A program made the position numbers and the translations under genes. A DNA stretch of 64,000 nt from a virus. Positions within the stretch are counted from its first letter, which is position 1. Each line of letters starts with the position of its first letter. The notes beneath the pieces are model-generated. The model worked only from the letters and a program-made list of their open reading frames with translations, searched no databases and was not told where the DNA came from. Below, in pieces: positions 1,495 through 30,824 of this stretch. The DNA is taken from the IMG/VR virus record IMGVR_UViG_3300020160_000289, positions 27,549 to 91,548 of that record, one strand, 5' to 3'.

Positions 1495-4400
1495 TTACAT
1501 GGCTCCTGTAAATTGGATCCAATAGTACCGTGTACCACTCCATATCCACTGATACTCAACGCCAATGCTTGGATCAATCCAAAAATCGCCCAACCTGTTA
1601 GTTGATGTTGTAGGTGGAGTAGTTGATACTGTTACCCTTGGTGTATATAACGGTGTTCCCCCTTGACTATAAACATCTCCTTGTATATAAACATCACCTG
1701 TAACGCCTATACCGCCCGATACTTGGACAGCATTACCTGCTACAGTTGATGTAGAATTGCCTGTGTTTGTAAACGAAACTATATTCGTAGTTGTAGCGCC
1801 ACGGTTTGTTATACTCTGTAACGTGCTTGTATTCCATACAGTAACCGCGCCAGTTGAAGTGCTAATCGCTGTATCTGTTCCAGCAGTTATGAAGCTTACA
1901 TAACTACCAACACCGCCTGTTCCTGATGTTAAAACTTCGTATCCAGCAACGAATAATTTTTCACCAATATAAACTGTTCCGCCAATGCCTGCCCCGCCAA
2001 TGATAGTTATTGCTCCGGTCAGTGTGCTTGTTGCCGAAGTAGAGTTGACTAATTCTAAAGAACCAAATTTAGCAGATCCCCATGTTCCTGTATTAGAGAA
2101 AGCAGCCGGATAGTTTTCAACTCCGCCGGGATAGACATTAGTTTTATAAACTAATTTTTGAGTAGCATTATCCATACCTAAGAAGGCATGGTTATCATAG
2201 GCAGTATTAAGTGTGCTTGTTGTGTTATAGTGAAGTACTAGACCTCTATCGTACCCGTCGTTAATGCCTAATAGCGTATCGTTGGCACCAGCGCCTAACT
2301 CGATAACAGGATCAGTTATATAAGTTTGTGTAGAATTTACAAAAGTTTGACTACCAAATACCTGTAACGAACCATTAATTACTGCGTTACCGTTGACATT
2401 TAGTGCCCCGCCAATACCTACGCCACCAGTTACAACTAATGCTCCGTTGGTTGTAGCAGTACTTGCCGTAGCATTAGTAATACGAATAGCGTTATTAGTT
2501 GTAGATCCTCTATTCGTGACACTTTGTAAAGTACTAGTATTCGAGATTGTAATAGTACCGGTATTGGATGTAACTGAAAGATCAGCACCTGCTGTTAGAG
2601 TTTGAACACCTAAGTTAGTAATGGTAACAATACCGGTACCGGAATTTACACCTATATAGGTCGAACCTTGTATAGCAATTACACCGGTGTTGTCAATAGT
2701 AAATGAAGTTGCTGTGCCAACAGTGACAGCACCGGATCTAATACTAATTCCTGTTCCGCCAACTGGGGTAACACTTGTTACGACTCGATTTGATTGATCG
2801 TAAAGGGCACCTGCGAATACGTTTCCTGCTATTCCTGCGCCACCTGCTATAATTACAGCACCGGTACTTGTGCTTATTGAAGCAGTAGTAGCAGTTACAT
2901 TAAGAATGCCGGAAACGTTAACAGTATTTAGATTTGAAGTAAGGAGAACGTCTAGAGTATTACCAATAGTTGCGTTACCTTGCGGAATGCTAAGTCCGCC
3001 AATAATGATTGAATTAGTGGTAGAATTTCCTCTGGAGGTAACAGCGGTAAGGTCGTCAATACTTTGAATTATTACGTTACCGGTACTGGTATTAATAGAA
3101 ATACCGCCACCCGATGCTGTGTTAATAGATGTTACACCATAAGTTCCTAGGGTAGCATTTGTAATTACTAAACTTCCATTAGCATAGATGTTGTTAGCTT
3201 TAATATCTCCACCAACTTCTAGCTGTGCAGTAGCAGTGGTTACATTGATACCAACAAAATTTGAACCAAATCCTCCTTGTTGGACACGAATAACTTCATT
3301 TGGTCCAAGTGCTAAACCTAAAGCACTGTTTACATTTAGAGAAAAATATCCTGTTGAATTTGTTCCTGTAAAGTATAGATCTAATAATCCGCCAGTTGAA
3401 TCGTTCCATGATTGGAGACGATAATTTCCGTTTACGTTTAATGGGGATCTCGAATCAACGCCACCGTCTCCAACAGTTACTTCTCCAGTTACATACGTTC
3501 GTTTAGCAACATACAATCCGCCGGATAACTGTACGGCAAATTGACTTCCGTTAATTGTAGCTTGAGATGTATTAGAGAATGTTATTGCTCTATCAGTTGT
3601 TGCCCCGCGCTGTGTAACTAATTGAAGAGTATCAGTTTCTGTCGTTAATGTCTTAACGCCATTTGAGTAAATGTCCTTGGCCCAAATGTCTCCAGTGACT
3701 CCGATACCGCCTGCTACTGTTAGTGCTCCAGTAGTAGTAGAAGTAGACGACGTAGCATTAGTAATGTTTATAGCATTAGTAGTAGTAAATCCTCTACCGG
3801 TCACTGTCTGCAAGGTGCTATTATTCCAAACATACACTTGTCCAGTTTGACTACTTACCGAAGTATCAGTGCCGGCATATAGTGCTGTTATACCTAAACT
3901 GCCGATGCTACCTTGAGTAACAACTAAGCTACCGTCTGAATAGAGATTGGCACCGTAAATATCGCCGCCGACACCTAATCCGCCAACTATAGTGACCGCA
4001 CCAGTTACTGTACTAGTTGCCTGAGAAGTATTTGTAAATTGTACTACAACGTTAGTAGAACTTCCTCTACTGGTTACGGTCTGTAATGTGCTTGTAGTCC
4101 ATACGGTTACTGCTCCAGTTGAAGTGTTTACCGCGGTATCTGTTCCGGCAGTAAGAGTTGTTACAGCATACTGAGGAATAGTTACAATAGAAATTAACTT
4201 GCCGTCGACGTCATAAAAGTTAGCGCCGCTATAAACTCTCTTGGCAAAGTATGCTCCACCGTTGGATATTAGTGAGCCAGAACCACTACCGCTAGAATCG
4301 CCAGTACTTTCTAATTTTAGTGTACCAAATCTTGCGGCACCCCACGTTCCTAAACTAAGGAATGAAGGAGTAATTTGACTAAATGGTCCAGTGGCTACTC

Positions 4401-12187: not shown

Positions 12188-15100
12188 TTATGCTCCTACC
12201 ACCAAGATGAACGGTGTCATAGTTGCGTACAAACTCTTTTCAAAGGTTCGTCCAGCAAGTACACCAGTACTCTGACTAATAACTAATGTTGGTCCGATTC
12301 TAAAATCTCCGTTTTGGTCTGTTGATGTAAAGAACACCTTACCGTTATTTAATTGAACCACTTCTTTGTTCTGTTGTGGGTCAGCAGTACCTACTTGAGG
12401 CAGAGCACCGTATTGTGTACCAGCACCTACATACTCAAATAAGTATCCAGACGCTGAAATGTAACTCTGTTGATAGAATCTTACTGTAGCACCATCGATG
12501 AATAATGTTGGGTCTGTTACGTTTTGTTCTAGTCGAACAATGTGATACTGTCCTTTTCGATTAAAGTAACCGTTACCTGTGTTTACAGAATTATAATTTC
12601 CACCGTATATTAAATCGTATCCTACCGCATCAATGATTGCTCCAACATCTCGATAACACTTATCTTTAGGATAATTTGGAGCGTCGGTAAACGCAGTATC
12701 AATATACGCAATAACTTCAGCTTTGATAAAATCTCTATTTGCCAATAGTAAGTCAAATGCGTTGATAACTTGAGTACTTGTACTTGCTACTTGACTAATT
12801 GGTTGTTTTGCTGGTGCTACTCCGGGACCATTGTTAATAATATTTGTAATATTATCTATTTTATCTTGTACTAAGGAAACTTCGATACTAGTTCCAGTTG
12901 ACGCAGATAATACTTGCGGAACTTTAAATTGGTAAGTGTTATCTAATGATGTTCCGGTAATAATATTACCGACTATGGTCTTAATATAGTCATACGCGGC
13001 AGTTGTTTGAGGAATTTGATCGTCAATGGCAGTATCAGCGGCATTAAATCCGTAGTAGTATACGCCGCTGGTAATACTTTGCCTGTTGCCGCCGTGTAAT
13101 AGATCAAAACTTAATGAATCGACTATGTACCCAACATCTCTATAACAAATTTCTCTATCGTAACTAAACTCTTGATTATCTAAATCTATACGAGCAATAA
13201 CTTCATCTTGAATAAATGCTTTATTAGCTCTTAATATATCGTAACTTGCTAGTATATTGGTGCTAGTTGAAACTACTCCGTTTGGAACAATTAAGTCAGT
13301 TACTCCAGTAGTTCCACCTGTCAATATTGACAGAATTAAATCAACATTATTTTGTACTGTTTGAGAAATCTTAACAGTACCCGTAGATAAATTTAACACT
13401 TGTGCTGTAGAAGTTGTAGCATCTACCGGTTCGTTGACTATGACTTTGCCTACTAATTCTTTAATATATCTTATAGCATTTGTAGTTGTTGTTAGTTGTG
13501 AAATTATTTCTCCAGTATAGGCATCTTGGTTCCAGTACTGTAATCCGGCAAACGTGCTTTCAGTTGTACCTTCGTACAACAAATCAAAAGCAATACTATC
13601 GATAATTAAACCAGTGTCTCTCTTACATTTTGTTTTATCATATAAAAATCCAGTGTTGTAAGTGTTATTAATATAGGCAATAGTTTCTGCTCTAATAAAA
13701 TCTCTATTAGCATTTAATAGTTTAACAGCGTTGACAGTAGAAGTGCTGGTGCTTGCTGTTACAGAAATTGATTCTTTAACCGTAACTTCGTCTGGACCGC
13801 GCTCAATAATATTATTAATTAAATTAACATTATTCTTAACTATTTGTGCTTCGACTGTTGTTCCAGTCTGTGTACTAATAACCTGAGTGATTAATGTTTG
13901 TTGTGGGTCCGTAATTAAAGTTCCCGTAACAATATTTTCAACAATACTTTCAATGAAATTATAAGCACTGGTAGTCTGTGGAATTTCTTTAGGTATTGCT
14001 GTGTCTTCTCCGTTATATCCGTAATAGTATACACCGCTTTGAACAGCTTGTTTGTTACCACCGTAGAGTAAATCAACGCTTACGCTGTCGATCATATAAC
14101 CTATATCTCGGAAACATTTTTCTTTGTCGTAAACAAACCCTGTAAAATTACTGTTAATATAAGAAACAATTTCGTCTTGAATAAATGTTCTATTGGCTAA
14201 CAATAAATCAAAAGCATAAGTTGAGTTAATGTCACTGCTCGCAGTTAAACTAATAGAAGTTAATGTTCCGGCAATCGCAGGTCCATTGTTGATAATATTT
14301 GTGATTTTATCAACCTTTGCTTTGGCCTTTGTTATTGTAGTACTATTAGCAGGCAACATATAAGTTATCTGATTTGTAGTATTTCCTGCGCTAGGAATAA
14401 TTTCAACTCCGCTGATAATATTACCAAGTATGTCTTTTAGTCGATTATAAGCGGCTGTAGTTTGGGGAATTTCATTTAAAATAGCTGTAGACGTACTAAT
14501 ATATCCGTAATACAACACTCCGCTCTGAATACTCTGCTTATTGCCGCCGTGTAGTAGATCAAATGCCACACTGTCAATCATGTATCCTGCGTCTCTTTGG
14601 CATTTAGCAGAGTCGTAAGTAAATCCACTTGTCTTAGTAGTTTCAACATAGGCAATAACTTCAGCTATTAGATATTCTTTGTTAGAAAGTAACAAATTAT
14701 AAGCATAGTTTGTATTTGTAGAAGAACGTCTTTTTCCGTTAGGAACAATAATATCAGTGACTCCGTTAGTTCCGGTGTTTAAAATATCAATAATAAAACC
14801 AAAGTTATTTCCAACAACAGCCGATTCGTTTGATGTTGCCACTAATGTTGAAGTAGTTTGTGTAACGGTACTTTGATATCTTGTGCCGCTCTGATTATTA
14901 ACTACAACTTTTTGCGCCAATGAGCTAAGGTATATAATAGCGTTAGTAGTAGTTGTTATTTCGTTGGCAATATTTCCAACATAACTATTTTGATTCCAAT
15001 ATTGGATTCCGGCAAATGTACTTTGACTATCGTTAGTTGACGGATATAATAGATCAAACGCAATACTGTCAACAATTAATCCTGTATCTCTCAAACACTT

Positions 15101-18100
15101 GGCCTGATCATATACAAAGTTAGATGTTTGATCAACATAGGCAACAACTTCATGTTGTAGATATTCCTTATTTGCCTGAAGTAAAGTATATGCCGAAATT
15201 GTTGAAGTGGACGTACTCGCAGTTATTCCGTTTGGTACAATTATGTCTGTTACGCCTTCGGTACCGTTTTCAAGAATAGTTAAGATTACATCAAAATCCT
15301 TCCCTACATTGGCAGCAACAATTGATGTGGAACTAGTTATTGTACTAGTCACTTGAGTAACAGTACTTTGATATCTATATCCAGATGTATTATTACGAAC
15401 AACTTGTTGTGCTAGAGACTTTAAGTAACTAATTGCTCTAGTTGTAGTGGTTTCTTCACCAGGAATAACACTTGCGTTTTGGTTCCAATATTGAAGGCCG
15501 GCAAATGTACTCTGGCTTGTTCCTTGGAATAATAAATCCTGTGCTAGAGAATCAACGATCAGTCCTGTATCTCGACTGCACTTAGCAGGATCGTAACTAA
15601 ATTTACTTGGCCATAGATCGTCAACAAATGCTACAGTTTCTTCTTGGATAAATCTTCTATTCTTATCAAGCAACTTTTTAGCATTTAATATATTGATGTT
15701 AGGGTCAACATATTGTCTAGGTCGAGTAATTTCTGGACTACTAGTAGATCCGTCTTTGATTATATTAGCGATAATGTCAAATTTAGATCCTAGAGATCCG
15801 ACAGCATCGATTCCGCCAGTTAAAGTTGAATCAAATATCTGTGAATACGCAGTTTGATACGTTCCAAGATCGTTGGTAGAATTAATATAGGCAATTACTT
15901 CTTCTTGGATAAATGATCGATTAGCTTGTAAGGCAAGATACGCATTATAATCTTCCGGAATTAACGATTCTGTTAAAGAAACAGGAACCTTAGCGTTGGC
16001 CGCATTGGGTCCGTTGTTAATAATATCAACAATAAGATCAATGCTATCTTGTAATTTTGTTACTTCTGTTATTGTGGCAGTAGAAATATTTGTTATTTGA
16101 GGAACAAAAGTCTGATAAGTAGAAGTTGTTATTCCTTGTACTACATACGGAATTAATTGTCGGATATAATTATAGGCCGCAGTAGTTGCTGGGATCTCAT
16201 TAGCTATCGCAGTTGAAGAAGAATTGTATCCGTAGTAACTAACGCCACTTTGAATAGCCTGTCTGTTACTCGACACATCTCCGTACGGATGTAGCAAATC
16301 AAACGCTACGCTGTCAATCATATACCCTACGTCTCGATAGCAAAGGCCGGCATCGTAAGTAAATCCAGAAGTTTTTGTTGTTTCAACATAGGCAATCGCT
16401 TCTTCTTGGATATATGTTTTATTACCTAATAATAAATTATAAGCCTTTGTTCTTTCTTCTGTTCCTGATATTTCACCGTTAGGAATAATTTTATCAGTTA
16501 CTCCTGCAACTCCATCAACGATGATATCTAATATTACCTCAAAATCATTTCCTACGATTGTAGCGGCTACGATCGAAGCAGGTGGCGGAGAAATATTTTG
16601 TGTAACAGTAGATTGGTAACGAGTTCCTGAGCTAACGCTACCTGTTATATTTTGAACAATTTCTTGTGCTAACTGCTTAACATACCTAATGGCATTAGTA
16701 GTAGTGGTCAGTTCGTTGGCAATGGTGCCAATATACTGATCTTGATTCCAGTATTGAAGACCGCTAAAATTACTCTGACTTAGTTCAGTTGTTGGGTATA
16801 ACAGATCTACGGCAATAGAGTCAATTATTAGTCCAGTGTCTCTCTTACATTTTGCCTGATTATATACTAATCCGGCGACCGGTTCATTTTGTATTACTCG
16901 AAGAGCGAGATTTTTAGCATAGCTAACTGCTAAAGATGTGGTTGTTTCTTGGCCAGGAACAAGTGTCACTTGATTTGTAACAGTTGACGACAATGACTCG
17001 TCGACTATACTTGACAATACTGTATAATATGCGTTACCACAGAAATATAAATTAAAAAACGCATCGTAATTTAAGTCTTGATACCCGGATACTATTGGAC
17101 GGTCTAAAGTTATCGATCTAAAATTGACATCAATTACCTGTGTACCAGTAGTGATATAAGGAATGCCTGTATCTGGATTTACAGAGTTTCCAAAAACATC
17201 AGTCACATAAAGTGTATGACCGACTGCGACGTCAGTTACATCGATATCATTGATAGTGTAACTGTTAGTAACAAGGGTGTTAGTGTTAATTGTGGCAATC
17301 AGGTATCCTGGATATCCTGCTGAATTAACGTAAGGAACCCTATCACCATTGTAATCAAGGTAAGTATCAGGGGCAACAACTTCCATAACTTGCCCGATGT
17401 GTGGACGATCTCTATCGTTAGGAATAAAGACTTCCATTCTTTGTTTGTTTGGCCAAAAACCTAATGGGTAGAAATCACTGTTAGGTACGTTTGTAGGATA
17501 CGCAGGGTTTCTAACAAATCCTGCGAATGCCAATTTGCCTAAACCTTTTGCCGTTAAACAAGTATCACCAAAGTTTGCGTTAGAGTTAGTAATAGAAGCA
17601 ATGCCGCCGTTCTCAACAATAACAGCCTGACTACACATAATAGTAAACACAGAAACTAACTGTGCGTATCCGTTATTAATAATGTGGACTCCGATACCGC
17701 CTTGTGTAACTTGCGTGAACGCATCAAACACAAAAGATTGAATAGGTGATCGTATACTCGGAGCGTTCCCGTCAACTAATGCGCCACCCCCAGACCCTAT
17801 AGGATCAAGTCTACGATCAGCATACTTGTCTCCGTCATTTACAGTCCATGCTGTGGGTATATCAGCATCTAAGAACGGATATACCGAAGTTTCTCCAAAA
17901 TAGATTGTTGCGTTATCGCTAGGACTTACAGTAGGAGAACTTAATGTAATTAAGTATACATTATCTGACACGGTTGTGATCGCAGTTATTGTAGACGCAT
18001 TATTAACGCCATTGGGACTTAGACCAGTTGGATATATTAATCCGTAAAGATCTTCTTTAGGATTTGGAACACTGCTTTCGCCGCTTTGGATGATTGATGA

Positions 18101-19522
18101 AATTAAATTAAAACTTTCAATTATTCTAGTATTAACAACTTGACCGTTGTCTAAATTTAAATTGATAACCTGGAAGGTAGAAGTATCAAATAAATTAGTT
18201 ACAGTATTATTGACAATAATATCTACTGATAAATCTCTAATATAATTAATTGCCGCGATTGTTTGAAATTGTTCTCCGGAAATTAAACTGGTATTCCCGG
18301 ACCAATAGGCTAGCCCTGCTTCGATACTTCTTTTGTTCCCGCCGAATCGAGCGTCACCAGCAACCGCATCAACGATATATCCTACATCGCGATAACACTT
18401 AACTTGATTATATACTAAATCTGGAAATTGATCTTCTACGAATGCAACAGCTTGTGTTTGTAGAAATATCCTATTCTTTTCTAGTAACAACTGAGCATTT
18501 CTATATCCTTCGTTGGCAGCATCATTGACTGCCATACCTACAGAAATAGTACCTGTATATACAGAAACTACAATTTGATTTTGATCTGCTGTCCAGGTTG
18601 ATGTTCCTGCGGCTAACGGAATTTGTATTGTTTGATTTGGGTTAAACATTGTCCCGTCTTTCAACCACGGACCACTTTGATTGGTACAGTTTTGAATGTA
18701 CGGAGAATGATATAAATCTATAGGATTTTCTAAGTTAGGAGGAAACGCACACATGTATGCGCCAGTTGTGTATGTACCTTGACCTCCGGGAGCATATCTT
18801 TCAACACTTCCTCTACGTAGATTACGCATTTGCATTTGTGCAATGTATACACCAGAATTAACATGGAATAAATCTAAATCTTTATTCAATGGTTCAACAA
18901 AAGTAGTTCTTAAGTCATTACCAACCACCGAAGTGTATGCCTTTAGAGGTATTGGGTTATCTTCAAAATAAGTACCTGCGGCAACTCTAATTGTTGTGCC
19001 TTCGGTATACAATGGACTACGAACAGCTCCACTGATTGTTCTACATGCTCTTGTAGAATCAAGCGCAGATCCGTCATTATTATCATTTCCGTTTGGAGTA
19101 ACATATAGGGTCAACGGATTAATTGGAAATGTTCCTAGAGGAATACCGCTTACAGTAAAATCCCCGGTTACCGAACCGTCGCCAGTTACTGCTAAATCTT
19201 GTTCAATGTCTACATCACCTGCTATTTGAACTTTCTGAAATGGTGTTAGTATAATATTTGAGTTAGAGTCTACACCGTTAATTTCAATTTCAGTGCCATT
19301 TTGCGTGGATCTAATAACCTGACTTGTGAAACTTAGTTTACCTAAAGTATTTGTAAAAGTAGCTTTACCACTATCGTCTGTTTGTAACGTATAACCAGTA
19401 TTAGACTCCGGAGCAACGCCGAGCGCAGGCTGAGCATTATCTACTCCTAGATAATCCCATCTATCTGGTTTTAAATTCTCTGGGCGAGGAACCGGTTTTC
19501 TATTACTTAATAAACGTGGCAT
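12188..19522 (-). CDS. Giant beta-helix virion protein with 10 phycobiliprotein-like CxRD repeats
   Basis: 2444 aa. YVTPNGNDNNDG..ACRTISGA..GTYFEDNP beta-helix start; 10 copies of Y(D/N/P)xxxCxRDxGxxxD; paralog of 19942..26514. Confidence 0.8.
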   Translation of the reverse strand: MPRLLSNRKPVPRPENLKPDRWDYLGVDNAQPALGVAPESNTGYTLQTDDSGKATFTNTLGKLSFTSQVIRSTQNGTEIEINGVDSNSNIILTPFQKVQIAGDVDIEQDLAVTGDGSVTGDFTVSGIPLGTFPINPLTLYVTPNGNDNNDGSALDSTRACRTISGAVRSPLYTEGTTIRVAAGTYFEDNPIPLKAYTSVVGNDLRTTFVEPLNKDLDLFHVNSGVYIAQMQMRNLRRGSVERYAPGGQGTYTTGAYMCAFPPNLENPIDLYHSPYIQNCTNQSGPWLKDGTMFNPNQTIQIPLAAGTSTWTADQNQIVVSVYTGTISVGMAVNDAANEGYRNAQLLLEKNRIFLQTQAVAFVEDQFPDLVYNQVKCYRDVGYIVDAVAGDARFGGNKRSIEAGLAYWSGNTSLISGEQFQTIAAINYIRDLSVDIIVNNTVTNLFDTSTFQVINLNLDNGQVVNTRIIESFNLISSIIQSGESSVPNPKEDLYGLIYPTGLSPNGVNNASTITAITTVSDNVYLITLSSPTVSPSDNATIYFGETSVYPFLDADIPTAWTVNDGDKYADRRLDPIGSGGGALVDGNAPSIRSPIQSFVFDAFTQVTQGGIGVHIINNGYAQLVSVFTIMCSQAVIVENGGIASITNSNANFGDTCLTAKGLGKLAFAGFVRNPAYPTNVPNSDFYPLGFWPNKQRMEVFIPNDRDRPHIGQVMEVVAPDTYLDYNGDRVPYVNSAGYPGYLIATINTNTLVTNSYTINDIDVTDVAVGHTLYVTDVFGNSVNPDTGIPYITTGTQVIDVNFRSITLDRPIVSGYQDLNYDAFFNLYFCGNAYYTVLSSIVDESLSSTVTNQVTLVPGQETTTSLAVSYAKNLALRVIQNEPVAGLVYNQAKCKRDTGLIIDSIAVDLLYPTTELSQSNFSGLQYWNQDQYIGTIANELTTTTNAIRYVKQLAQEIVQNITGSVSSGTRYQSTVTQNISPPPASIVAATIVGNDFEVILDIIVDGVAGVTDKIIPNGEISGTEERTKAYNLLLGNKTYIQEEAIAYVETTKTSGFTYDAGLCYRDVGYMIDSVAFDLLHPYGDVSSNRQAIQSGVSYYGYNSSSTAIANEIPATTAAYNYIRQLIPYVVQGITTSTYQTFVPQITNISTATITEVTKLQDSIDLIVDIINNGPNAANAKVPVSLTESLIPEDYNAYLALQANRSFIQEEVIAYINSTNDLGTYQTAYSQIFDSTLTGGIDAVGSLGSKFDIIANIIKDGSTSSPEITRPRQYVDPNINILNAKKLLDKNRRFIQEETVAFVDDLWPSKFSYDPAKCSRDTGLIVDSLAQDLLFQGTSQSTFAGLQYWNQNASVIPGEETTTTRAISYLKSLAQQVVRNNTSGYRYQSTVTQVTSTITSSTSIVAANVGKDFDVILTILENGTEGVTDIIVPNGITASTSTSTISAYTLLQANKEYLQHEVVAYVDQTSNFVYDQAKCLRDTGLIVDSIAFDLLYPSTNDSQSTFAGIQYWNQNSYVGNIANEITTTTNAIIYLSSLAQKVVVNNQSGTRYQSTVTQTTSTLVATSNESAVVGNNFGFIIDILNTGTNGVTDIIVPNGKRRSSTNTNYAYNLLLSNKEYLIAEVIAYVETTKTSGFTYDSAKCQRDAGYMIDSVAFDLLHGGNKQSIQSGVLYYGYISTSTAILNEIPQTTAAYNRLKDILGNIISGVEIIPSAGNTTNQITYMLPANSTTITKAKAKVDKITNIINNGPAIAGTLTSISLTASSDINSTYAFDLLLANRTFIQDEIVSYINSNFTGFVYDKEKCFRDIGYMIDSVSVDLLYGGNKQAVQSGVYYYGYNGEDTAIPKEIPQTTSAYNFIESIVENIVTGTLITDPQQTLITQVISTQTGTTVEAQIVKNNVNLINNIIERGPDEVTVKESISVTASTSTSTVNAVKLLNANRDFIRAETIAYINNTYNTGFLYDKTKCKRDTGLIIDSIAFDLLYEGTTESTFAGLQYWNQDAYTGEIISQLTTTTNAIRYIKELVGKVIVNEPVDATTSTAQVLNLSTGTVKISQTVQNNVDLILSILTGGTTGVTDLIVPNGVVSTSTNILASYDILRANKAFIQDEVIARIDLDNQEFSYDREICYRDVGYIVDSLSFDLLHGGNRQSITSGVYYYGFNAADTAIDDQIPQTTAAYDYIKTIVGNIITGTSLDNTYQFKVPQVLSASTGTSIEVSLVQDKIDNITNIINNGPGVAPAKQPISQVASTSTQVINAFDLLLANRDFIKAEVIAYIDTAFTDAPNYPKDKCYRDVGAIIDAVGYDLIYGGNYNSVNTGNGYFNRKGQYHIVRLEQNVTDPTLFIDGATVRFYQQSYISASGYLFEYVGAGTQYGALPQVGTADPQQNKEVVQLNNGKVFFTSTDQNGDFRIGPTLVISQSTGVLAGRTFEKSLYATMTPFILVVGA

Positions 19523-19543
19523 CGTTTTCTCTTATGTTTTATT

Positions 19544-19930
19544 TTAATTGTTTGCTGTTTCTAACACGCTTAATACAAGTTTACACGAGCCGGCTGCGTC
19601 TGAATAAGCTCTGATACTATCTTGACTTTCGAGAATCATCTTGCCAGTAATTAACGATGCTGAGTCATTGGGCGGAATTGGGAAGTTCATTACCAACTCC
19701 GATGTTGTATTTGGCTCTTGTGCGTTATTACCTTGGGCGTCAGGAAGAACTCTAAATCTTCTATGATGACTGAAAGTAACAGTATGTGTAGCTTGACTAT
19801 CAACGTTGGCCACCTGTGCCATCAAGATAATAGAAGTAACTCCGATTGGTGCTACATAAACAGTAGCAGTAGTATTAGTATCTAAAATCTTTGTCTTTGT
19901 CTTAAACGTGTTTAATGGAATTAATGCCAT
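19544..19930 (-). CDS. Small virion structural protein
   Basis: 128 aa with GGAG SD. TVYVAP..IILMAQVAN..KMILESQDSIRA pattern is similar to 27369..27686. Confidence 0.65.
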   Translation of the reverse strand: MALIPLNTFKTKTKILDTNTTATVYVAPIGVTSIILMAQVANVDSQATHTVTFSHHRRFRVLPDAQGNNAQEPNTTSELVMNFPIPPNDSASLITGKMILESQDSIRAYSDAAGSCKLVLSVLETANN

Positions 19931-19941
19931 GTATTTCTCCT

Positions 19942-22900
19942 TTATTCGCTGCCGCCCGCTTCAACAGCTAAGATGAATGGTGTCATCTGGGCAAACAAGC
20001 TCTTTTCAAATGTCCTGCCAGACAACACACCTGTTGCCTGACTAATCACTAATGTTGGACCGATACGGAAATCTCCGTTTTGGTCTGTTGAAGTAAAGAA
20101 CACCTTACCATTATTTAACTGAACAACTTCTTTGGTCTGTTCGGGGTCAACTCTTCCTACTTGAGGCAAGGCACCGTATTGTGTTCCTGCTCCGCAATAT
20201 TCAAACAAGTAGCCTGACGCACTTTGATAACTTCGTTGATAGAAGTTAACTGTACTACCGTCAACAAATAACAATTGATTTCTTACGTTATCTTCCAAAG
20301 TAGCGATATGGTAAGTACCTTCTCTTGTGTAATATGTCTTAGCTGCCTCGACACTCCTAAAGTTGCCCCCAGTTTGTAAATCCGCTATGAGAGCATCGAT
20401 CATTAAGCCGGCATCTCTTCGACATTTTTGTTTATTGTATACAAACGTTTGAGGGAACGTTTCATTGATATAGGCAATCGTTTCTGCTTTGATAAATTCT
20501 TTATTAGCAAGTAATAACGCAAATGCTTTTAATCTATTCGGATTAGCATTTTGTACAAGACCAACTGGTACCTTTTCGCCTGCTTCGTCTGGGCCGTTTC
20601 TAATAATATCAGTTATAATATCAACCTTTGACTGAAGTACTGCAGCTTCTGCTAAAGTGGCAGGGTTTAAATTAGTTACCTGAGGTACTGCTGTTTGGAA
20701 ATTTGGAGATGTTGGAGTACCAGTTACAATATCTCCAACAATGGCTTTGATAAAATTATAGGCAGCTTCTGTTTGTGGAATTTGATTATCAATCGCAGAG
20801 TCGGCAGGGTTAAATCCGTAGTAGTAAACTCCTGACATGATACTTTGTCTGTTACCGCCATGAAGCATATCAAAGCAAACTGAGTCTACAATATATCCAA
20901 CATCTCGGCGACACTTAGTTTCATCGTAGCTAAAACCGCCGCCGTAAGTTGAAGTTATGTAGTTAATAACTTGTGTTTTGTAAGATTCTTTGCTTGCTTG
21001 GACGTTGGCTACTGCTGTCAATGCTGTAAAGTCAGTAGTTTTAAAACCGTTTGGAACGATATCATCTGATATTCCAACAATTCCGTTATCTAATATGTCA
21101 AGTATGTTGTCAAAACGTTGGCCAGCAACTACACCTGGTGCGCCGCCAGCAGTTGATACTACTAACGATTTTAGATAAGCAATCGCGCCCCTAGTCTGTA
21201 CGATTTGATCAATAATATCTCCAGTATAGCTGTCTTGATTCCAATATTGTAATCCAGCAAATGTACTTTGAGAAATGCTATCGTAAAGCATGTCAATAGC
21301 AATACTGTCAACAATCAACCCTGTATCTCTTGAACACTTGGCTTCATCGTAAGTAAATCCTCCGTAGATAGCATCTACATAGCTTACAGTTTCGTTCATT
21401 AGAAAGATTTTATTCTTTTTAAGCAAAGCAATAGCATCATTTTTTCCAGCAACTGCAGTTCCTGTAGTCTTAACTTGCGGTGCGGCCTGTGGTCCAGCTA
21501 GTATTACTCCTGTAATAATACCTAGACTATCACTAATAAATCCAGTTGAATTATTTCCTGACGGAAAACCATTGTCAATAGTTTGAGCTACACTAGTGCT
21601 GTATGTAGCAGTCATTAAAATATTTGATACTACATTGTTAGATATGTCTCTTAGATAGTTAATAGCGTCAATTGTTTCGGTCTCTTGGCCTAATATTTTA
21701 CTTTGACCAGTTGGATACGGACTAGTAACTGTTTTGCTACTTAAAATGTTATAGTATGCGTTTCCACAGCAATAGATATTAAAATAATTTCCGTTGCCGT
21801 ATTGGCCGCCACCTTGTAGAATAGGGTTACTCAGTGTAATTGATTGATAATTAACTTCGGTGATTGTCGTACCTGTTGTTAAGTAAGCAACTCCGTCACC
21901 GTTATCATCTGCTTCATATCCAAACTGATCTCTTATATAAACAGTCTGTCCTACTGAAACTCCCGTTACATCAATTCCATCAACTGTATAACTGCTGGTC
22001 GTTAAACTAGATGTGTTGACAATGGCTGTTAAAAATCCCGGAAATCCTTGTTCGTTAATGTACGGAACAGTTATTCCGTCGTAGTTTACATATTCGTCTG
22101 GAGGAACAACTTCCATCACTAAACTAATGTGTGGTCTATTGGCAGGATCTGGCACAAACACACATACCTGCTGGCTAGTAGGGAAATAGCCTTGTGGATA
22201 ATATTCGTTAGCTTCAAAGCTATTTGTTAACTCGTTATAGGCAACGTTGGCCGGATTGTAAATTGTTCCTCCAAATTTACGTCTTCCATACCCTCGAGAT
22301 AAAAGACATAAGTCACCAAAGTTATTATTTGAGTTGGTAATAGAAGCAATACCGCCGGCATCAGTTTCAACAGCAATGTTACAGAAAATTGTAAACACAG
22401 ATACTAACTGAGCATAGCCTTCATTGATAATATGAATTCCTCTTCCACCTTGGGTAATTTGTGTAAACGCATCAAACACAAAAGATTGAATTGGACTTCT
22501 AGTAGATGGCGCAAATCCGTCGACGAGAGCACCGCCACCGGAGCCGTTAGGATCAATTCTTCTATCAGCAAATCCGTCAAGACTCCATTCGCCTGGCATA
22601 TTTTTATCTTCTTCTGGGTATACTGTCGTATAACCAATATACATAATATCATTTGTTGCTGACGCAATCGTTGAAGTACTTAGATGTAGAATGAACTGAG
22701 TTAATGTGGAATTTGTACTAGGAGGTGCGAAAGGTGGACCATTTTCTATAATAGTAGCGATAGCATCAAAATTGTTTCTTACTAAATCTCTAGCAACATA
22801 ACCGCCATTCAATTGACTGTTAATAAGTTGCGGTACAACGATTGTAGCAGTAGTTGAGCTTGAACCAGGGACTGTAATTTGTTTGGATGTTTGGTATAAA

Positions 22901-25900
22901 GAAGTTACTGGATTATTAGCAATAACTTCTAATGCTAGATTTTTAAAATATAAGATAGCGCCAGCAGTTTCTTTTGTTTGTCCTTCGATTACACTAACCG
23001 CATTATCCCAGTAGGCATATCCTGCTTCTAAAGATTTAATATTTGATCGATTAACAATATCTTGAGCAACAGCATCCACGATTAACCCAACATCTCTAAA
23101 ACATTTTTCTTCATTGTACTTGAATACGTAAGGGTTGATAAATGTAGTATTAACAAACTCAACTACTTCGGCAACAATAAAATCTCTGTTTGCTACTAGT
23201 AGATCATATGCTCGAAGAACTGATGTTGATGTGCTAATATCTAAACCTATCGATGATAGCTCCGGAGCAGCCGATGGTCCGTATTTTATAATTTTTCTAA
23301 TTAAGTCAATGTTATCGCCAACCGCTCGAGACTCATCAGCAGTTGCTGCCAGATAGTCTGTATTTTGTAAAATATTAGGCTGATATGTTCTTGTAGCAGT
23401 TATACGTTGAACAACTTTGTCAACTAACGCTTTCATGTACTTGTAAGCCGCCATGGTCTGCGGTATTTCATTTATAAGAACTGTGCTGGTGGAGTTATAT
23501 CCGTAATAAGAAACTCCTGCTTGTACGCTTTGTCTATTGCCGCCGCGTAATAAATCCATAGTAACGCTGTTTACTATGTACCCAGCATCTCTTCTACATT
23601 TTGTTTGATCGTATACAAAACCGCTTGGTTTATTTGCTTCAACATACGCCACTACCTCATCTTGAATAAATGACTTATTATTTTTTAAAGTTTGAACAGC
23701 ATATAATACATCAACATCTGTAGATACAGCACCGTTTGGTACGATTGTATCAGTGACCCCTGCTGTACCAACTGTTAAAATATTCAATATTACATCATAT
23801 TTGTCAACAAGATCAGACACGACTGTGACACTAGTAGCCGTTACTGAGGTATCTTGTATAGCTGTGCTTAGTTTGCTAACAGTAAAATTTTGTACTATTT
23901 GTTCTGATATCTGTTTAGCATAATTAAAAGCATTTCTTGTAATAGTCTCTTCGCCAGGTATCTCAGTTGTGCCTTGATTCCAATATTGTAGTCCGGCAAA
24001 AGTTGATTGGCTTGATCCTCCATATACTAGATCTAACGTTAAGCCGTCTAAAATTAATCCAGTATCTCGTTCGCAATGTGATTCATTGTAAACAAAATCT
24101 AATTTTGTAAAAGTAGTATCAACATAGGCCACTACTTCGTGTTGTAAGAATTCTTTATTAGCTACTAAAAGATCGTAGCTGTTAACAATTTCCGATATTG
24201 TGCTAGGATTAACACTATTAGAAACTAAAGATGAAGTTTGCTTTCCTTGAATTCGGCGATTGATTAATACAATATTCCTGCTAACAAGTTCAACGGCAGC
24301 ATTTGTGCCGGTAGTTAAATTGACAATCTGTGTAACTGTTGATTGATAACTGTCTAATAGTTGATTTTTTAATATTACATCTCTAACGATTGAACCTAGA
24401 TAAGTTATTGCTGAAACTGTTTCGTCTATTTGGTTCGCTATTACTGCTCCGTTAGAGTAACTTGCGCCAGCGGCAGTTGATTGCTCATTGCCACCATATA
24501 GCAAGTCAGTTGCTAAGGCATCGATTAATAGTCCAGTATCTCTAAAACATTTTGATCTATCGTAGGTAAAACTTGGAATTGATTGTCCTACGTAAGTTTC
24601 ATTTACAAATGATACTACTTCCGCTTGTAAGAATCCTCTATTAGCATTTAACAATGCCGCGGCATTTTCGTAACCTGGTTGATTTTCTAGAATGTCTACT
24701 AGTAAACTAATCGAGTTATCAATTCCGCCTACTACTACTGAGCCGCCATTAGATGCTGTATTAAATGATTGAAATGCTATCGTACCTGTAGTTTTTGTAA
24801 CAGTTACATTAGATACGATATCTTTAGCAATAACTCCAATCCTATTAAACGCTGCAATAGTTGCAGTAGTTTCGTTGCCTAAAATTTGAACATTGTTTAC
24901 ATAATAAGATTTACCAGCAGTAACAATACTTTCGTTGCCGCCTAAAATAACATCATTAACAAGAGCATCTACAACATAACCAACGTCTCTTCTACATTTT
25001 ACTCTGTCATAAACAAGATCTGAATAAAAGAAATCTACATATGAAACAACTTCGTCTTGTATAAAAGATTTATTATCTACTAATAATCCTTTAGCAGTTT
25101 GAAAATTTGGATCAGGATTTTCAATAGCGTCAATAGTGGCGACTAGTATATCTGGATCAATTAAAATACCTTTTCCGTTAATAGACATTCCTATCTCGGG
25201 CATCTGACCTGAAATTTCAGGGAGTATGTTTACAGTTATAACCGTGGTGTTGATTACGTATGTGGATGTAGCAACTACTAATGGAACTTGAACTGTTTGA
25301 TTTGGCACAAACATTGTTCCATCAAACAGCCACGGACCTGATTGATTAGTACAGTTTTGAATATAGGGACTGTGAAATACGTCAATTGGATTATCTAGCT
25401 TAGGTGGAAAGGCAACACAATACGCACCGGTTGTGTATGTGCCAGCACCGCCCGGCACGTAGCGAGTAACTTCTCCTCGACGAAGGTCTCGCATGGTCAT
25501 CCCAGTAATATAAACACCGCTGTTTACATGGAACAAATCAACTGCGTTGTTTAATGGAAATACAAAAACTCCCCTTAAGCTGTCTCCATATACAGATGTG
25601 TAAGGCAACAATTCAATAGGATTGTCTTCGTAATATTTTCCAGGAGCAACTTTAATAACAGTACCTTGTTTGTAATAAGGACTTTTAGTTGCTCCACTAA
25701 TCGTACGGCAAGCACGGCTTGAGTCCATGGCTCTACCATCATTTTCGTCACTACCGTTTTCGTTTACGTATAGTATATTATTAACAACAGGGGCAGTTCC
25801 AATTGGATTTCCGCCGTAGACTCGAATGTCTCCGTTAATTTGTACGCTCTTGTTTAGGGTTCTTTCTAGTAGAGGTATATCTGGAAAGAATTGAACGTTA

Positions 25901-26514
25901 GTATATGTACCAACAGTATCTACTTGCTTAGTAAAAATATTTTCTAAGTAAGCACTCTTCCAGTAAGAAGTAGTATTACCGATACTGTAATCAGAAATAA
26001 TATTAGTATTGGTAATAAATTCTGTTACTGTAAATCCGTTAGTAACTGTGGTAACAAATGTCCCGGAACTTAGATAGGGTAATAGATCAGTATCAATCTC
26101 TCCAAGTAGACTAATCGTGTCGCTTGATGTAGTATCGCCTAATTTAATATTTCCTTGGGCAAAGAAATTTCCTGTAGCAAATACATCACCGTCAACTCGT
26201 AGGTCAGAGTTGATAAATGTATCATCTGTACCGCCTGGTGTAATATTAAATGGACCGTAGATGGTCGAAACTGTGCTACTAGATGTTGAGCTTTCTATGG
26301 TTATTAAACCGATAGTAGCGGTATTAAGGATTATTTTGGCAGCTCTAATTGTGCCTGTGTTAACATCTAACTCGTATGCCGGAGCAGATTGTCTAATACC
26401 AATTCGGCCGTTTACAACGTCAACATATAGCAAATCATCGTCAATTGCTATGTCTATGCCGTCTCGTCGCAAGTTGCTTGCGAGTAACGGACCAGTAATG
26501 CGACCAATGGCCAT
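19942..26514 (-). CDS. Giant beta-helix virion protein with 8 phycobiliprotein-like CxRD repeats
   Basis: 2190 aa. Same beta-helix scaffold and near-identical C-terminus as 12188..19522; 8 CxRD repeats in two blocks (5+3). Confidence 0.8.
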   Translation of the reverse strand: MAIGRITGPLLASNLRRDGIDIAIDDDLLYVDVVNGRIGIRQSAPAYELDVNTGTIRAAKIILNTATIGLITIESSTSSSTVSTIYGPFNITPGGTDDTFINSDLRVDGDVFATGNFFAQGNIKLGDTTSSDTISLLGEIDTDLLPYLSSGTFVTTVTNGFTVTEFITNTNIISDYSIGNTTSYWKSAYLENIFTKQVDTVGTYTNVQFFPDIPLLERTLNKSVQINGDIRVYGGNPIGTAPVVNNILYVNENGSDENDGRAMDSSRACRTISGATKSPYYKQGTVIKVAPGKYYEDNPIELLPYTSVYGDSLRGVFVFPLNNAVDLFHVNSGVYITGMTMRDLRRGEVTRYVPGGAGTYTTGAYCVAFPPKLDNPIDVFHSPYIQNCTNQSGPWLFDGTMFVPNQTVQVPLVVATSTYVINTTVITVNILPEISGQMPEIGMSINGKGILIDPDILVATIDAIENPDPNFQTAKGLLVDNKSFIQDEVVSYVDFFYSDLVYDRVKCRRDVGYVVDALVNDVILGGNESIVTAGKSYYVNNVQILGNETTATIAAFNRIGVIAKDIVSNVTVTKTTGTIAFQSFNTASNGGSVVVGGIDNSISLLVDILENQPGYENAAALLNANRGFLQAEVVSFVNETYVGQSIPSFTYDRSKCFRDTGLLIDALATDLLYGGNEQSTAAGASYSNGAVIANQIDETVSAITYLGSIVRDVILKNQLLDSYQSTVTQIVNLTTGTNAAVELVSRNIVLINRRIQGKQTSSLVSNSVNPSTISEIVNSYDLLVANKEFLQHEVVAYVDTTFTKLDFVYNESHCERDTGLILDGLTLDLVYGGSSQSTFAGLQYWNQGTTEIPGEETITRNAFNYAKQISEQIVQNFTVSKLSTAIQDTSVTATSVTVVSDLVDKYDVILNILTVGTAGVTDTIVPNGAVSTDVDVLYAVQTLKNNKSFIQDEVVAYVEANKPSGFVYDQTKCRRDAGYIVNSVTMDLLRGGNRQSVQAGVSYYGYNSTSTVLINEIPQTMAAYKYMKALVDKVVQRITATRTYQPNILQNTDYLAATADESRAVGDNIDLIRKIIKYGPSAAPELSSIGLDISTSTSVLRAYDLLVANRDFIVAEVVEFVNTTFINPYVFKYNEEKCFRDVGLIVDAVAQDIVNRSNIKSLEAGYAYWDNAVSVIEGQTKETAGAILYFKNLALEVIANNPVTSLYQTSKQITVPGSSSTTATIVVPQLINSQLNGGYVARDLVRNNFDAIATIIENGPPFAPPSTNSTLTQFILHLSTSTIASATNDIMYIGYTTVYPEEDKNMPGEWSLDGFADRRIDPNGSGGGALVDGFAPSTRSPIQSFVFDAFTQITQGGRGIHIINEGYAQLVSVFTIFCNIAVETDAGGIASITNSNNNFGDLCLLSRGYGRRKFGGTIYNPANVAYNELTNSFEANEYYPQGYFPTSQQVCVFVPDPANRPHISLVMEVVPPDEYVNYDGITVPYINEQGFPGFLTAIVNTSSLTTSSYTVDGIDVTGVSVGQTVYIRDQFGYEADDNGDGVAYLTTGTTITEVNYQSITLSNPILQGGGQYGNGNYFNIYCCGNAYYNILSSKTVTSPYPTGQSKILGQETETIDAINYLRDISNNVVSNILMTATYSTSVAQTIDNGFPSGNNSTGFISDSLGIITGVILAGPQAAPQVKTTGTAVAGKNDAIALLKKNKIFLMNETVSYVDAIYGGFTYDEAKCSRDTGLIVDSIAIDMLYDSISQSTFAGLQYWNQDSYTGDIIDQIVQTRGAIAYLKSLVVSTAGGAPGVVAGQRFDNILDILDNGIVGISDDIVPNGFKTTDFTALTAVANVQASKESYKTQVINYITSTYGGGFSYDETKCRRDVGYIVDSVCFDMLHGGNRQSIMSGVYYYGFNPADSAIDNQIPQTEAAYNFIKAIVGDIVTGTPTSPNFQTAVPQVTNLNPATLAEAAVLQSKVDIITDIIRNGPDEAGEKVPVGLVQNANPNRLKAFALLLANKEFIKAETIAYINETFPQTFVYNKQKCRRDAGLMIDALIADLQTGGNFRSVEAAKTYYTREGTYHIATLEDNVRNQLLFVDGSTVNFYQRSYQSASGYLFEYCGAGTQYGALPQVGRVDPEQTKEVVQLNNGKVFFTSTDQNGDFRIGPTLVISQATGVLSGRTFEKSLFAQMTPFILAVEAGGSE

Positions 26515-27368: not shown

Positions 27369-27686
27369 TTAACCTACTAGAACATAGCTACATGTGCAGG
27401 TAATAATTGTATTTTGACTTGCCTGAGCTTGCACGCTGTCACCGTCTTGTAAAATAAATCTTTCTGTGTCCATGCTAAAAGTTTCTCCGGCCGGAACAGA
27501 AATTTGATTTAAAATTATATTTGCGTCACCTGCGGCAATAGCAGACGGTACCATCCATACGCTCACTGTTGCGTCAACAGTTAAACTTGAATTACAAAAT
27601 ATTAAGCAGGTAACAGCGTTTTCTCCGTTGGCTACAAAGACTTCTGTTTTTTGTGATGCGCTTAATTGCGAGTTAGTGATTGCCAT
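27369..27686 (-). CDS. Small virion structural protein
   Basis: 105 aa, resembles 19544..19930 (FILQDGDSVQA). Confidence 0.65.
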   Translation of the reverse strand: MAITNSQLSASQKTEVFVANGENAVTCLIFCNSSLTVDATVSVWMVPSAIAAGDANIILNQISVPAGETFSMDTERFILQDGDSVQAQASQNTIITCTCSYVLVG

Positions 27687-29645: not shown

Positions 29646-30824
29646 TTAACGGAAAGAAACGTTTGCGCTTGTGATAGCAACTTTGCCTAGGTAGTCAGCT
29701 GCATTACCTAGAGAAGAAGCAGTGTTTGTCAACTCAACATAGCCGTAGCGTGTTAAGAAGCCAACTACTGGTTCGAATGTTGCTGGGTCTAGAACAACAC
29801 CAGAACTCATTAGAGGAATGTAAGGGCAATAGAATGCCGCTGCATCAGCCTCGGAAGGTCCTTTGTAACCAATTAGACATTGGTTGTTGTCGTCTGTATC
29901 GCTTAGATAAGCATCAACATAGATTCTCATGCTGTTATTCAATGTACCAACAAACTTAGTGTTTGTAGGAGCTTCGAATGTACCTTCTGTTGTACGAGCA
30001 AATGCGCTTGTAGTAGCAGATTGTAGGATTGTCAAAGCCTGGTTAGAAATAACTGCCCAGTTAGCAGAACCACGACGTGTACGCTGAGCGATCAAGTTAG
30101 CAACACGGTTGATCTGAACTGCCAATGCGGCATGCTCGTCACCAACGAATGTAGCTGTACCAGATACAGCGGCTTGGTCATAAGTTTGTTCAACTGTGCC
30201 TAGAGCACGTAAAGAACCTAGAATTTCTTGGTCGATTTCAGCAGTAATTTCTTGTGCTAAAGCGGCCATGATTTCTGCTTCGATGTCAATACCTTGCATA
30301 GCTTGAGCATCTTGTGCTGCCTCGAAAGTCCAACGAGCGCTTAGTTTACGAGACTTAGCTTCGACTGGTGCTTTCAAGATTTGAATGCTCATACGCTTGC
30401 CTGGTTGGCCTTCTAAGATAGAAGTTGTTTGAGCTTTCGGTGTTGCATTGTTGTTACCGGAGTAACCAGCTGCAATCTTGAATGGGCTTAGTGCCTCATC
30501 TCCAGCTACCACGGAATCGCCGCTTGATGTATCAGCGTAACGAACACGTAGAGTATGGATTTGTGCTACTGGGCCTGTCATTGGTTGAACACCAACGATT
30601 TCGTTAGCAATAACGGTTGGCATAACACGACGAATAACTGGAAGAATAACGCGGTTTAAAGTTGCGATATTACCAGTGCTTGTAGCACCTGCGGATGCAG
30701 ATTCTGCCAAGTACTTGCGTGTGTTTTCCAAGCAAACTGCCATTGAAGACTTACGTGTACCGGATAGGCCTTCAAGCAGAGCTTCTTTGGTCTCTGACCA
30801 TCTTTCATTTAATAATTGTGACAT
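29646..30824 (-). CDS. gp23: Major capsid protein (T4 gp23 family)
   Basis: 392 aa. VGVQPMTGP, KSRKLSARWTFEAAQD, EITAEIDQEI, AFYCPYIPL, FEPVVGFLTRYG. Confidence 0.97.
   Translation of the reverse strand: MSQLLNERWSETKEALLEGLSGTRKSSMAVCLENTRKYLAESASAGATSTGNIATLNRVILPVIRRVMPTVIANEIVGVQPMTGPVAQIHTLRVRYADTSSGDSVVAGDEALSPFKIAAGYSGNNNATPKAQTTSILEGQPGKRMSIQILKAPVEAKSRKLSARWTFEAAQDAQAMQGIDIEAEIMAALAQEITAEIDQEILGSLRALGTVEQTYDQAAVSGTATFVGDEHAALAVQINRVANLIAQRTRRGSANWAVISNQALTILQSATTSAFARTTEGTFEAPTNTKFVGTLNNSMRIYVDAYLSDTDDNNQCLIGYKGPSEADAAAFYCPYIPLMSSGVVLDPATFEPVVGFLTRYGYVELTNTASSLGNAADYLGKVAITSANVSFR

Follow-up and report, generated by a model that had tools for sequence, protein, structure and literature searches.

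In a 64,000-nucleotide stretch of viral DNA (the window: the whole stretch analysed, positions 27,549 to 91,548 of the IMG/VR record IMGVR_UViG_3300020160_000289), two giant open reading frames (ORFs), denoted P0001 and P0002, lie within a structural gene module, adjoined by genes for a baseplate wedge protein, the portal and major head proteins (Table 1). P0001 matches tail fiber, short tail fiber and virion structural protein families of the PHROG database (E 7e-95 to 1e-18); the match to phrog_5342 has E 7e-95 for P0001 and E 1e-102 for P0002, and phrog_17885 covers the C-terminal domain of both. Their products are giant tail-fibre or baseplate-fibre proteins of a freshwater jumbo myovirus and are paralogues of each other; arrays of six-helix domains (~160 amino acids each, hereafter units) break up a scaffold rich in beta structure and a conserved C-terminal domain. 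The units are very probably remote homologues of bilin-binding globins, that is, of the phycobiliproteins and their BBAG relatives. An original prediction, made from the sequence of the window alone, had already taken both products for virion fibre proteins, in agreement with the PHROG families that they match.

The hallmark of the units is a C-x-R-D motif. Its Cys occupies residues 376, 892, 1061, 1315, 1476, 1641, 1803, 1966, 2126 and 2289 of P0001 (n = 10) and residues 507, 656, 814, 973, 1138, 1727, 1868 and 2031 of P0002 (n = 8), compared with 0.03 and 0.04 occurrences, respectively, expected by chance from the composition of each protein. Both proteins are poor in Cys, with 16 residues in P0001, 10 of them in the motif, and 18 in P0002, 8 of them in the motif. 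Thus, the ten and eight repeat copies originally predicted in these two ORFs, their coordinates and strand, the presence of C-x-R-D at all 18 sites and the scarcity of Cys elsewhere were all verified. The predicted repeat length of ~140 amino acids was too short: the actual period is ~160 amino acids (Cys spacing 160-169), with a helical core of ~148. The count of 18 domains holds for the motif sites, but a map made with a hidden Markov model (HMM) built from 400 diverse units contains only 13 whole or nearly whole units in the two proteins, the rest being partial pieces. Some of these pieces retain C-x-R-D, namely, the front halves (helices A, B, E and F) that close each C-terminal array, the Cys892 unit, which is devoid of helices A and B, and the shortened Cys1727 unit; others lack the motif (residues 850-882 and 1193-1259 of P0001 and 1603-1676 of P0002). 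In an alignment of 16 units, the mean column identity is 38%, and Y38, C43, R45, D46, G48, D57, G70, Y73, T90 and A93 are invariant.

Table 1. Features of the two giant fibre-type genes and of the ORF between them, in window positions
Feature	Position	Strand	Evidence
P0001, giant fibre-type protein, 2444 amino acids, 10 CxRD sites	12188..19522	-	ORF, PHROG tail families
P0002, paralogous giant fibre-type protein, 2190 amino acids, 8 CxRD sites	19942..26514	-	ORF, PHROG tail families
Single unit inserted in the N-terminal scaffold of P0001 (residues 339-483, Cys376)	18074..18508	-	deep HMM E 8e-47, profile 2-147
C-terminal unit array of P0001 (residues 850-2333), nine CxRD	12524..16975	-	HMM map, motifs, alignment
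Reference unit for the structure model (P0001 residues 1761-1915, Cys1803)	13778..14242	-	AlphaFold2, Foldseek, VIA-align, BFVD
N-terminal five-unit array of P0002 (residues 470-1224; Cys 507, 656, 814, 973, 1138)	22843..25107	-	HMM E 3e-37 to 5e-53
C-terminal array of P0002 (residues 1603-2070)	20305..21708	-	HMM map
Scaffold part 2 of P0001 (residues 490-850), non-helical, kept in the jumbo-phage clade	16973..18055	-	
Scaffold part 2 of P0002 (residues 1250-1600)	21715..22767	-	51% identical to P0001 segment
C-terminal domain of P0001, common to many cyanophage fibre proteins	12191..12535	-	phrog_3442 and phrog_17885 match residues 2344-2441
C-terminal domain of P0002, paralogous to that of P0001	19945..20289	-	phrog_3442 and phrog_17885 match residues 2073-2185
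ORF of 128 amino acids between the giant genes	19544..19930	-	phrog_1276 (unknown function), E 1e-11

When the unit profile was compared with the sequences in the PDB, 14 of the 18 matches were phycocyanin alpha chains (one of them labelled CpcA), the best being 6jpr_A (E 0.005), with C43 of the unit aligned on Cys84. For the comparison in the opposite direction, we assembled 198 distinct phycocyanin alpha and beta sequences, taken from cyanobacterial genomes by DNA pattern; the phycocyanin-alpha HMM matches exactly the ten sites in P0001 and the eight in P0002. Profile-profile alignment with hhalign gave a probability of 89% against the alpha alignment (P 2e-6, 66 columns) and 85% against alpha plus beta (94 columns, from helix B to helix G), rising to 94.6% (P 7e-8) and 93.6%, respectively, with the 400-unit profile, whereas control alignments, either reversed or column-shuffled (30 of the latter), yielded 1% or less. 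The hhalign matches begin at residue 38-39 of phycocyanin alpha. The signature common to the units and phycocyanin alpha, K-C-x-R-D-x-G-Y...G-G, lies at the start of helix E, and both HMMER and hhalign place the unit C-x-R-D on Cys84, Arg86 and Asp87; the alignment to KCARDIGYY...GG of phycocyanin alpha, which the original prediction had put forward, is thereby reproduced. In phycobiliproteins, Cys84 holds the bilin covalently, and Arg86 and Asp87 coordinate it. Pfam has no family for the units, and the phycobiliprotein family PF00502 was matched neither by the whole proteins (E <= 1), nor by 16 single units (E <= 10), nor by the six-frame translation of the contig (E <= 1); in five cyanobacterial genomes, the unit profile found no match at E <= 0.05. 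Given the lack of a PF00502 match and a relationship that is visible only between profiles, the units represent a new remote branch rather than a family-level member. Within the bilin-binding globins, the units form a new branch that is carried by phages and lacks annotation.

The predicted structure points in the same direction. A single unit was modelled with AlphaFold2 without templates, from an alignment consisting of the 16 paralogous units only; the model comprises six helices (predicted local distance difference test (pLDDT) 87.3, predicted template-modelling score 0.83). All 35 matches listed in the Foldseek search of the PDB are phycobiliproteins, the best being phycoerythrin beta 5b13_G, with a template-modelling (TM) score of 0.70 over 154 of the 155 columns. 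With VIA-align, run against 48,161 representative chains, the top eight are phycobiliprotein or ApcE chains (Z 12.9-15.7, root mean square deviation (rmsd) 2.0-2.9, 117-139 residues), led by a phycobiliprotein at Z 15.7 with an rmsd of 2.2 over 139 residues; the next ranks belong to a bilin-binding photocobilin (Z 11.7) and to haem globin sensors (Z ~11; 11.4). Thus, the globin-type phycobiliprotein fold that had been proposed is what the model predicts, and the structure search that had been suggested as a check, with a single-repeat model, ranks phycobiliproteins first by both aligners. Residue 1 of the model aligns to phycobiliprotein residues 29-47 in VIA-align, so that the unit spans helices A-H and lacks the X-Y hairpin. 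C43 falls in the first turn of model helix 40-60, that is, at the start of helix E. Independent BFVD models of fibre proteins from S-PM2, ACG-2014d, S-CAM1 and S-ShM2 show the same fold (TM 0.78-0.88), and none of these proteins carries a phycobiliprotein-like annotation. A search of the ESM Atlas returned no usable match.

The family is large. The unit profile recognizes 1425 clusters (50% identity representatives) at E <= 0.001, among them 615 at E <= 1e-30, with 2 to 39 units per protein; the names in UniProt include, for example, 'uncharacterized' and 'tail protein', and none is covered by a Pfam model. Among ~1540 units from the best 150 representative proteins, C43 is conserved in 95%, R45 in 96%, D46 in 98%, D57 in 100%, Y73 in 98% and T90 in 89%, and lysine is the commonest residue before the Cys (52%); C-x-R-D is present in 1330 of the 1422 units that cover the core. 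The Cys is retained throughout the 13 units of the cyanophages S-PM2 and P-HM2, within C-x-R-D in ten of them and within C-[VI]-D-D in three. Conservation of the Cys across homologs, on which the original prediction had staked its case, therefore extends well beyond the window. Exactly one Cys is present in 80% of the units, and 62 of the 150 proteins contain an odd number of sites; together, these counts make obligatory disulfide pairing unlikely. As a general reason for the Cys, disulfide formation is accordingly improbable, and it is possible in those marine units that have a second Cys. In marine cyanophage units, such as those of the giant S-PM2 ORFs, this second conserved Cys is frequent and lies in the last helix of the preceding unit, within D-P-x-S-C-A-N-V-Q.

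The units are inserted at two places in a scaffold that is common to P0001 and P0002 along with the N-terminal part and the C-terminal domain. The C-terminal array of P0001 consists of a G-helix piece, a unit without helices A and B, a whole unit, a remnant, six whole units and a front half; that of P0002 consists of a back half (profile 75-147), the shortened Cys1727 unit, the whole Cys1868 unit and a front half (profile 3-79, Cys2031). Both C-terminal arrays start with the back piece of a unit (21487-21708, profile 75-147, in P0002; 16877-16975, profile 74-106, in P0001) and end with a front half (20305-20535, profile 3-79, in P0002; 12524-12772, profile 2-83, in P0001). By folding onto each other, these complementary end pieces could close the whole array into a loop, next to the scaffold and the C-terminal domain. 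In the remnant (P0001 residues 1193-1259, window 15746-15946), helices A and B are joined straight to helix H, without E-F-G and without C-x-R-D; together with the converse case, the Cys892 unit, it suggests deletion or nested insertion events. Two unit subtypes can be distinguished within window 12524-16975, T (CxRDTGL...FAGLQYW) and Y (CxRD[VA]GY...GGN[RK]QS...YYGY). Their order in P0001 is T Y | T T Y Y | T Y, a bracket-like pattern that fits nested insertion of ~1-kb T-Y cassettes, and the order in P0002 is irregular; a strict alternation of the two subtypes, akin to that of alpha and beta subunits, is ruled out by both.

The phage itself belongs elsewhere than the original prediction assumed. 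The major capsid protein (window 29646-30824) shares 68-71% identity with its counterparts in jumbo phages that infect Proteobacteria (Phosso, GAP32, PA5oct and CBB) and less than 60% with cyanophage capsid proteins; these identities indicate that the window comes from a jumbo phage rather than from a T4-like cyanophage. The phage falls in an IMG/VR clade with capsid proteins 77-92% identical and near-complete genomes of 330-355 kb; its own contig (91.5 kb) amounts to ~25% of a genome. At least three studies yielded metagenomes, from fresh water and lakes, that contain near-identical DNA; no RNA data set is among the holders listed. No psbA was found in this contig or in 26 related contigs, and no hli in 25 related contigs; the contigs checked include five near-complete genomes. 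We therefore dropped the identification as a cyanophage, and the cyanophage-like setting that had been presumed gives way to a group of freshwater jumbo phages devoid of psbA and hli. The only cultured phages in which units were detected are cyanophages (264 and 186 records); GAP32 and Phosso, relatives of this phage that are in culture, have none.

What the units do is a separate matter from what they are. We tentatively favor the possibility that each unit still binds a linear tetrapyrrole at its lone Cys, as the single most likely function. The bilin might be biliverdin, phycocyanobilin or phycoerythrobilin; the Arg and Asp would hold the propionates and the pyrrole nitrogens as they do in phycobiliproteins, and attachment would be a cytoplasmic event, concurrent with assembly and probably independent of a lyase. 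A precedent for the latter is provided by BBAG-1 and BBAG-3, phycobiliprotein paralogues of non-photosynthetic bacteria with a CXRD motif, which bind several bilins without lyases (PMC10151467). The pigment could come from the host or from a heme oxygenase (HO) and bilin reductase pair of the phage, and the outcome would be chromophore-studded fibres. More speculatively, the chromophores might render the fibres light- or redox-responsive and so gate adsorption. The stronger form of this proposal, in which covalent bilins on the unit arrays in the fibres of many large aquatic phages act as a photoreceptor or antenna gating fibre deployment, is unlikely, although it would tie together several of the observations that follow.

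Some relatives of this phage do encode the means to make bilins. Overlapping genes for HO and a ferredoxin-dependent bilin reductase (FDBR) are present in two relatives from the same clade (G003 and G010) and in a complete 222-kb phage (G004), and FDBR is also present in G028 and G029; the HO-FDBR genes of the relatives sit tens of kilobases from the fibre genes. Among 14 viral contigs of at least 60 kb that were picked solely for FDBR, eight carry units, including G014 (11 units) and the complete G018 (10 units), and none carries psbA. The purpose of bilin genes in phages of non-photosynthetic hosts has been termed 'enigmatic' (PMC11480375). Three unit-bearing uncultured phages without psbA have their overlapping HO and bilin reductase genes at L207:3414-4602, L208:3316-4519 and L209:3324-4527; in the first of these, they adjoin genes for ClpS and Hsp20.

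A second line of observation concerns light. The cyanophages S-PM2, P-HM2 and P-HM1 adsorb only in the light, by an unknown route that is independent of photosynthesis, whereas P-SSM2, P-SSP7 and P-GSP1 adsorb in the dark (PMC6628666). The giant baseplate or fibre proteins of the first three contain nine, four and four units, respectively, and no units were found in the latter three, so that for the six phages with known adsorption behavior, units are present in 3/3 of those that require light and in 0/3 of those that do not. The lyase-type gene cpeT follows the same division in S-PM2, P-HM1 and P-HM2, which have it, and P-SSM2, which does not. In S-PM2 (LN828717.1), cpeT (L001:3602-4129) lies 1.5 kb upstream of S-PM2d218 (L001:5578 onward; 3779 amino acids, four units). 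Apart from tRNAs, two small ORFs and a gene for a 2OG-Fe(II) oxygenase, nothing separates the two.

Many of our results nevertheless weigh against bilin binding. The contig under study, which represents 25% of the genome, contains no detectable HO, FDBR or CpeT, as had been said of the window in the original prediction, and the host of this phage is probably not a cyanobacterium. Genomes G001 (93% complete) and G002 (100%) have units and no HO or FDBR that we could find; conversely, two complete FDBR-encoding phages of 60-65 kb have no units, P-SSM2, which encodes HO and FDBR, has none in a deep HMM search over its whole structural half, and neither does the pelagiphage Mosig (hemO and pcyX, host SAR11) in the most sensitive search. 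As for lyases, a search confined to the T and S types, and thus not aimed at the E/F type, found no CpeT among 12 related contigs and no CpeS among 25. The survey of relatives that had been proposed as a check thus came out divided, with HO-FDBR pairs in three of the phages named above but none in G001 and G002 and no CpeT in the 12 contigs, and the idea that the units serve as virion-side acceptors of phage-made bilins fails as a general rule. Moreover, when contigs of the jumbo clade were sampled by their capsid protein, 8 of the 13 had units and 2 of the 13 had FDBR; because units are common in the clade regardless, their co-occurrence with FDBR cannot be separated from shared descent, and its value as independent evidence is weakened by this within-clade control. 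Likewise, the adsorption correlation amounts to about four independent lineages, and the BBAGs assayed so far are photoinert (PMC10151467). Within the units themselves, D57 and Y73 are the most invariant residues and are not signature positions of phycobiliproteins; together with R45 and D46, they could make up a polar network that involves no pigment. Finally, at least one further Cys is present in ~16% of the units (two in all in 13%), as in the SCANVQ segment of marine cyanophage units, and, as noted, none of the searches produced a match to PF00502.

Alternatively, the units may be structural modules without a pigment, derived from a globin domain that once bound bilin and was recruited as a rigid helical spacer whose duplication in cassettes lengthens and diversifies the fibres. 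On this account, a serious rival that we regard as possible although somewhat doubtful, C, R and D are retained for a polar network with D57, Y73 and T90 that fills the former pigment pocket and stabilizes the fold. The wide range of unit numbers, the duplicating cassettes and the split pieces all fit a building block; the strict invariance of D57 and Y73 is specific to the phage family; complete genomes with units and without bilin genes or lyases, as well as the bilin-making P-SSM2 and Mosig without units, would be expected, as would the failure of PF00502 to match. However, a buried Cys at the start of a helix usually can be swapped for Ala, Ser or Val, yet the units retain it in 95% of cases while being otherwise only 25-45% identical to each other. 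Furthermore, the three best-conserved residues of the motif are precisely those that attach or coordinate the bilin in phycobiliproteins and in CXRD BBAGs (PMC10151467), and the preference for Lys before the Cys (52%) is that of phycocyanin alpha.

The units might instead bind something else, such as haem or a porphyrin, non-covalently bound biliverdin, a metal ion held by Cys, Asp and Tyr, or a host-surface molecule, and the arrays would then serve multivalent capture or adhesion. Binding is the usual job of fibre proteins, the fold is common to haem globin sensors and to the biliverdin- and B12-linked photocobilin (Z ~11 and 11.7), BBAG-2 binds biliverdin without a CXRD motif (PMC10151467), and the conserved C, D, D, Y and T would suit a metal or a polar ligand. 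We consider this quite unlikely, however, given that no His suitable for haem ligation is found among the invariant residues or the most frequent residues at conserved positions, phycobiliproteins clearly outscore haem globins (Z 15.7 against 11), and the sequence signature is specific to phycocyanin alpha. That the entire resemblance is an artefact, with a chance motif and a generic helical bundle over-read by AlphaFold and the searches, appears highly improbable. Single units do score low against phycobiliproteins (E 0.005 for the best PDB match), middling Z scores are frequent for helical bundles, and the five cyanobacterial genomes gave no match at E <= 0.05. But the alignment reaches past the motif, over 66-95 columns from helix B to helix G; reversed and shuffled controls stay at 1% or less; two structure aligners put only phycobiliproteins first, with best matches covering 139-154 of the 155 residues; the independent BFVD models agree; and the motif occupies the same structural place, in the first turn of helix E.

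Compared with C-phycocyanin alpha (CpcA; PF00502), the units have the same helices A, B, E, F, G and H, a domain of ~150 amino acids and the helix-E signature, but differ in several respects. They lack the X-Y hairpin, so that neither the alpha-beta monomer nor the (alpha-beta)3 ring would be built in the familiar way; they score under the Pfam threshold, and pigment binding in them is predicted; they add the invariant D57 and Y73 and a confidently modelled G-H loop of ~22 residues; 2-39 of them are joined head to tail in one chain, within virion fibre proteins rich in beta structure; and they are encoded by phages, including phages without photosynthesis genes. Among large proteins, the core-membrane linker ApcE likewise contains a phycobiliprotein-type domain in a multidomain context (Z 13.0-13.9 to the unit model), and it attaches its bilin autocatalytically; unlike the phage proteins, it has one such domain followed by linker repeats and is part of the phycobilisome core, being neither arrayed nor in a virion. 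The BBAGs (Rockwell, Martin and Lagarias 2023, PMC10151467), which we compared by their description only, are also phycobiliprotein-related globins outside the phycobilisome, with CXRD in BBAG-1 and BBAG-3; the organisms that encode them do not use them for light harvesting, and their genes are associated with those for HO and FDBR. Each BBAG is a cytoplasmic protein of one domain, with its gene next to one for pre-PcyA, whereas the phage units are tandem parts of virion proteins and the HO-FDBR pair, where a phage has one, sits elsewhere in the genome. The closest parallels in domain context are the giant fibre, gp7-like baseplate and structural proteins of T4-like cyanophages (phrog_5342, phrog_4527 and phrog_701), such as S-PM2d088, S-PM2d218, PHM2_086 and PHM2_096, which have in common with P0001 and P0002 the unit (E 1e-12 to 1e-30 for those of S-PM2 and P-HM2), the C-terminal domain and the fibre setting. 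The cyanophage proteins contain 2-5 units among many other modules, whereas P0001 and P0002, from a different phage lineage, consist mostly of units.

So far, phycobiliprotein-type globins have been known as antenna subunits and, since 2023, also the orphan bacterial BBAGs. Here, a domain of this type with an intact pigment site is the main building block of virion fibres and defines a large unannotated family; we found no published description of phycobiliprotein-like domains in virions in a search that covered subscription journals thinly. If the units are indeed chromophorylated, the particles would be pigmented and possibly light-responsive, and no virus is so described in the literature searched. 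A photoreceptor or antenna that gates fibre deployment would explain the light-dependent, photosynthesis-independent adsorption of cyanomyoviruses such as S-PM2 and P-HM2 as well as the 'enigmatic' HO and bilin reductase genes of phages with non-photosynthetic hosts. Two open questions, namely, the cause of light-dependent cyanophage adsorption (PMC6628666) and the use of phage-made bilins in hosts without phycobilisomes (PMC11480375), become testable with the cultured phages S-PM2, P-HM2 and Syn9. Even if the units prove pigment-free, they show a light-harvesting fold taken into use as a modular spacer of fibres, which spreads through the nested duplication of cassettes.

The remaining parts of the two proteins and their neighbors were also characterized. 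In Mosig, the tail-fibre genes lie ~6 kb away from hemO-pcyX (L408:39650-40886), whose immediate neighbors code for neck proteins and for a series of 2OG-Fe(II) oxygenases. On the contig under study, units are confined to P0001 and P0002: the HMM map shows none in the other ORFs of the 91.5-kb contig, including the flanking giant structural ORF of more than 2320 amino acids (phrog_10938, window 57041-64000) and the flanking gp7-like baseplate wedge protein of 1858 amino acids (window 1495-7071). The C-terminal domain of P0001 has no match in the PDB or Pfam, and scaffold part 2 matches neither a Pfam family nor a PDB sequence. In P0001, this part of the scaffold is 47-68% identical to 12 aligned sequences (the P0002 paralogue, at 51%, and 11 matches from 10 related contigs), and the AlphaFold model of residues 490-850, derived from 13 homologs, is all-beta but poor (pLDDT 48.6). 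The 128-amino-acid ORF between the giant genes belongs to no Pfam family and is a possible assembly factor.

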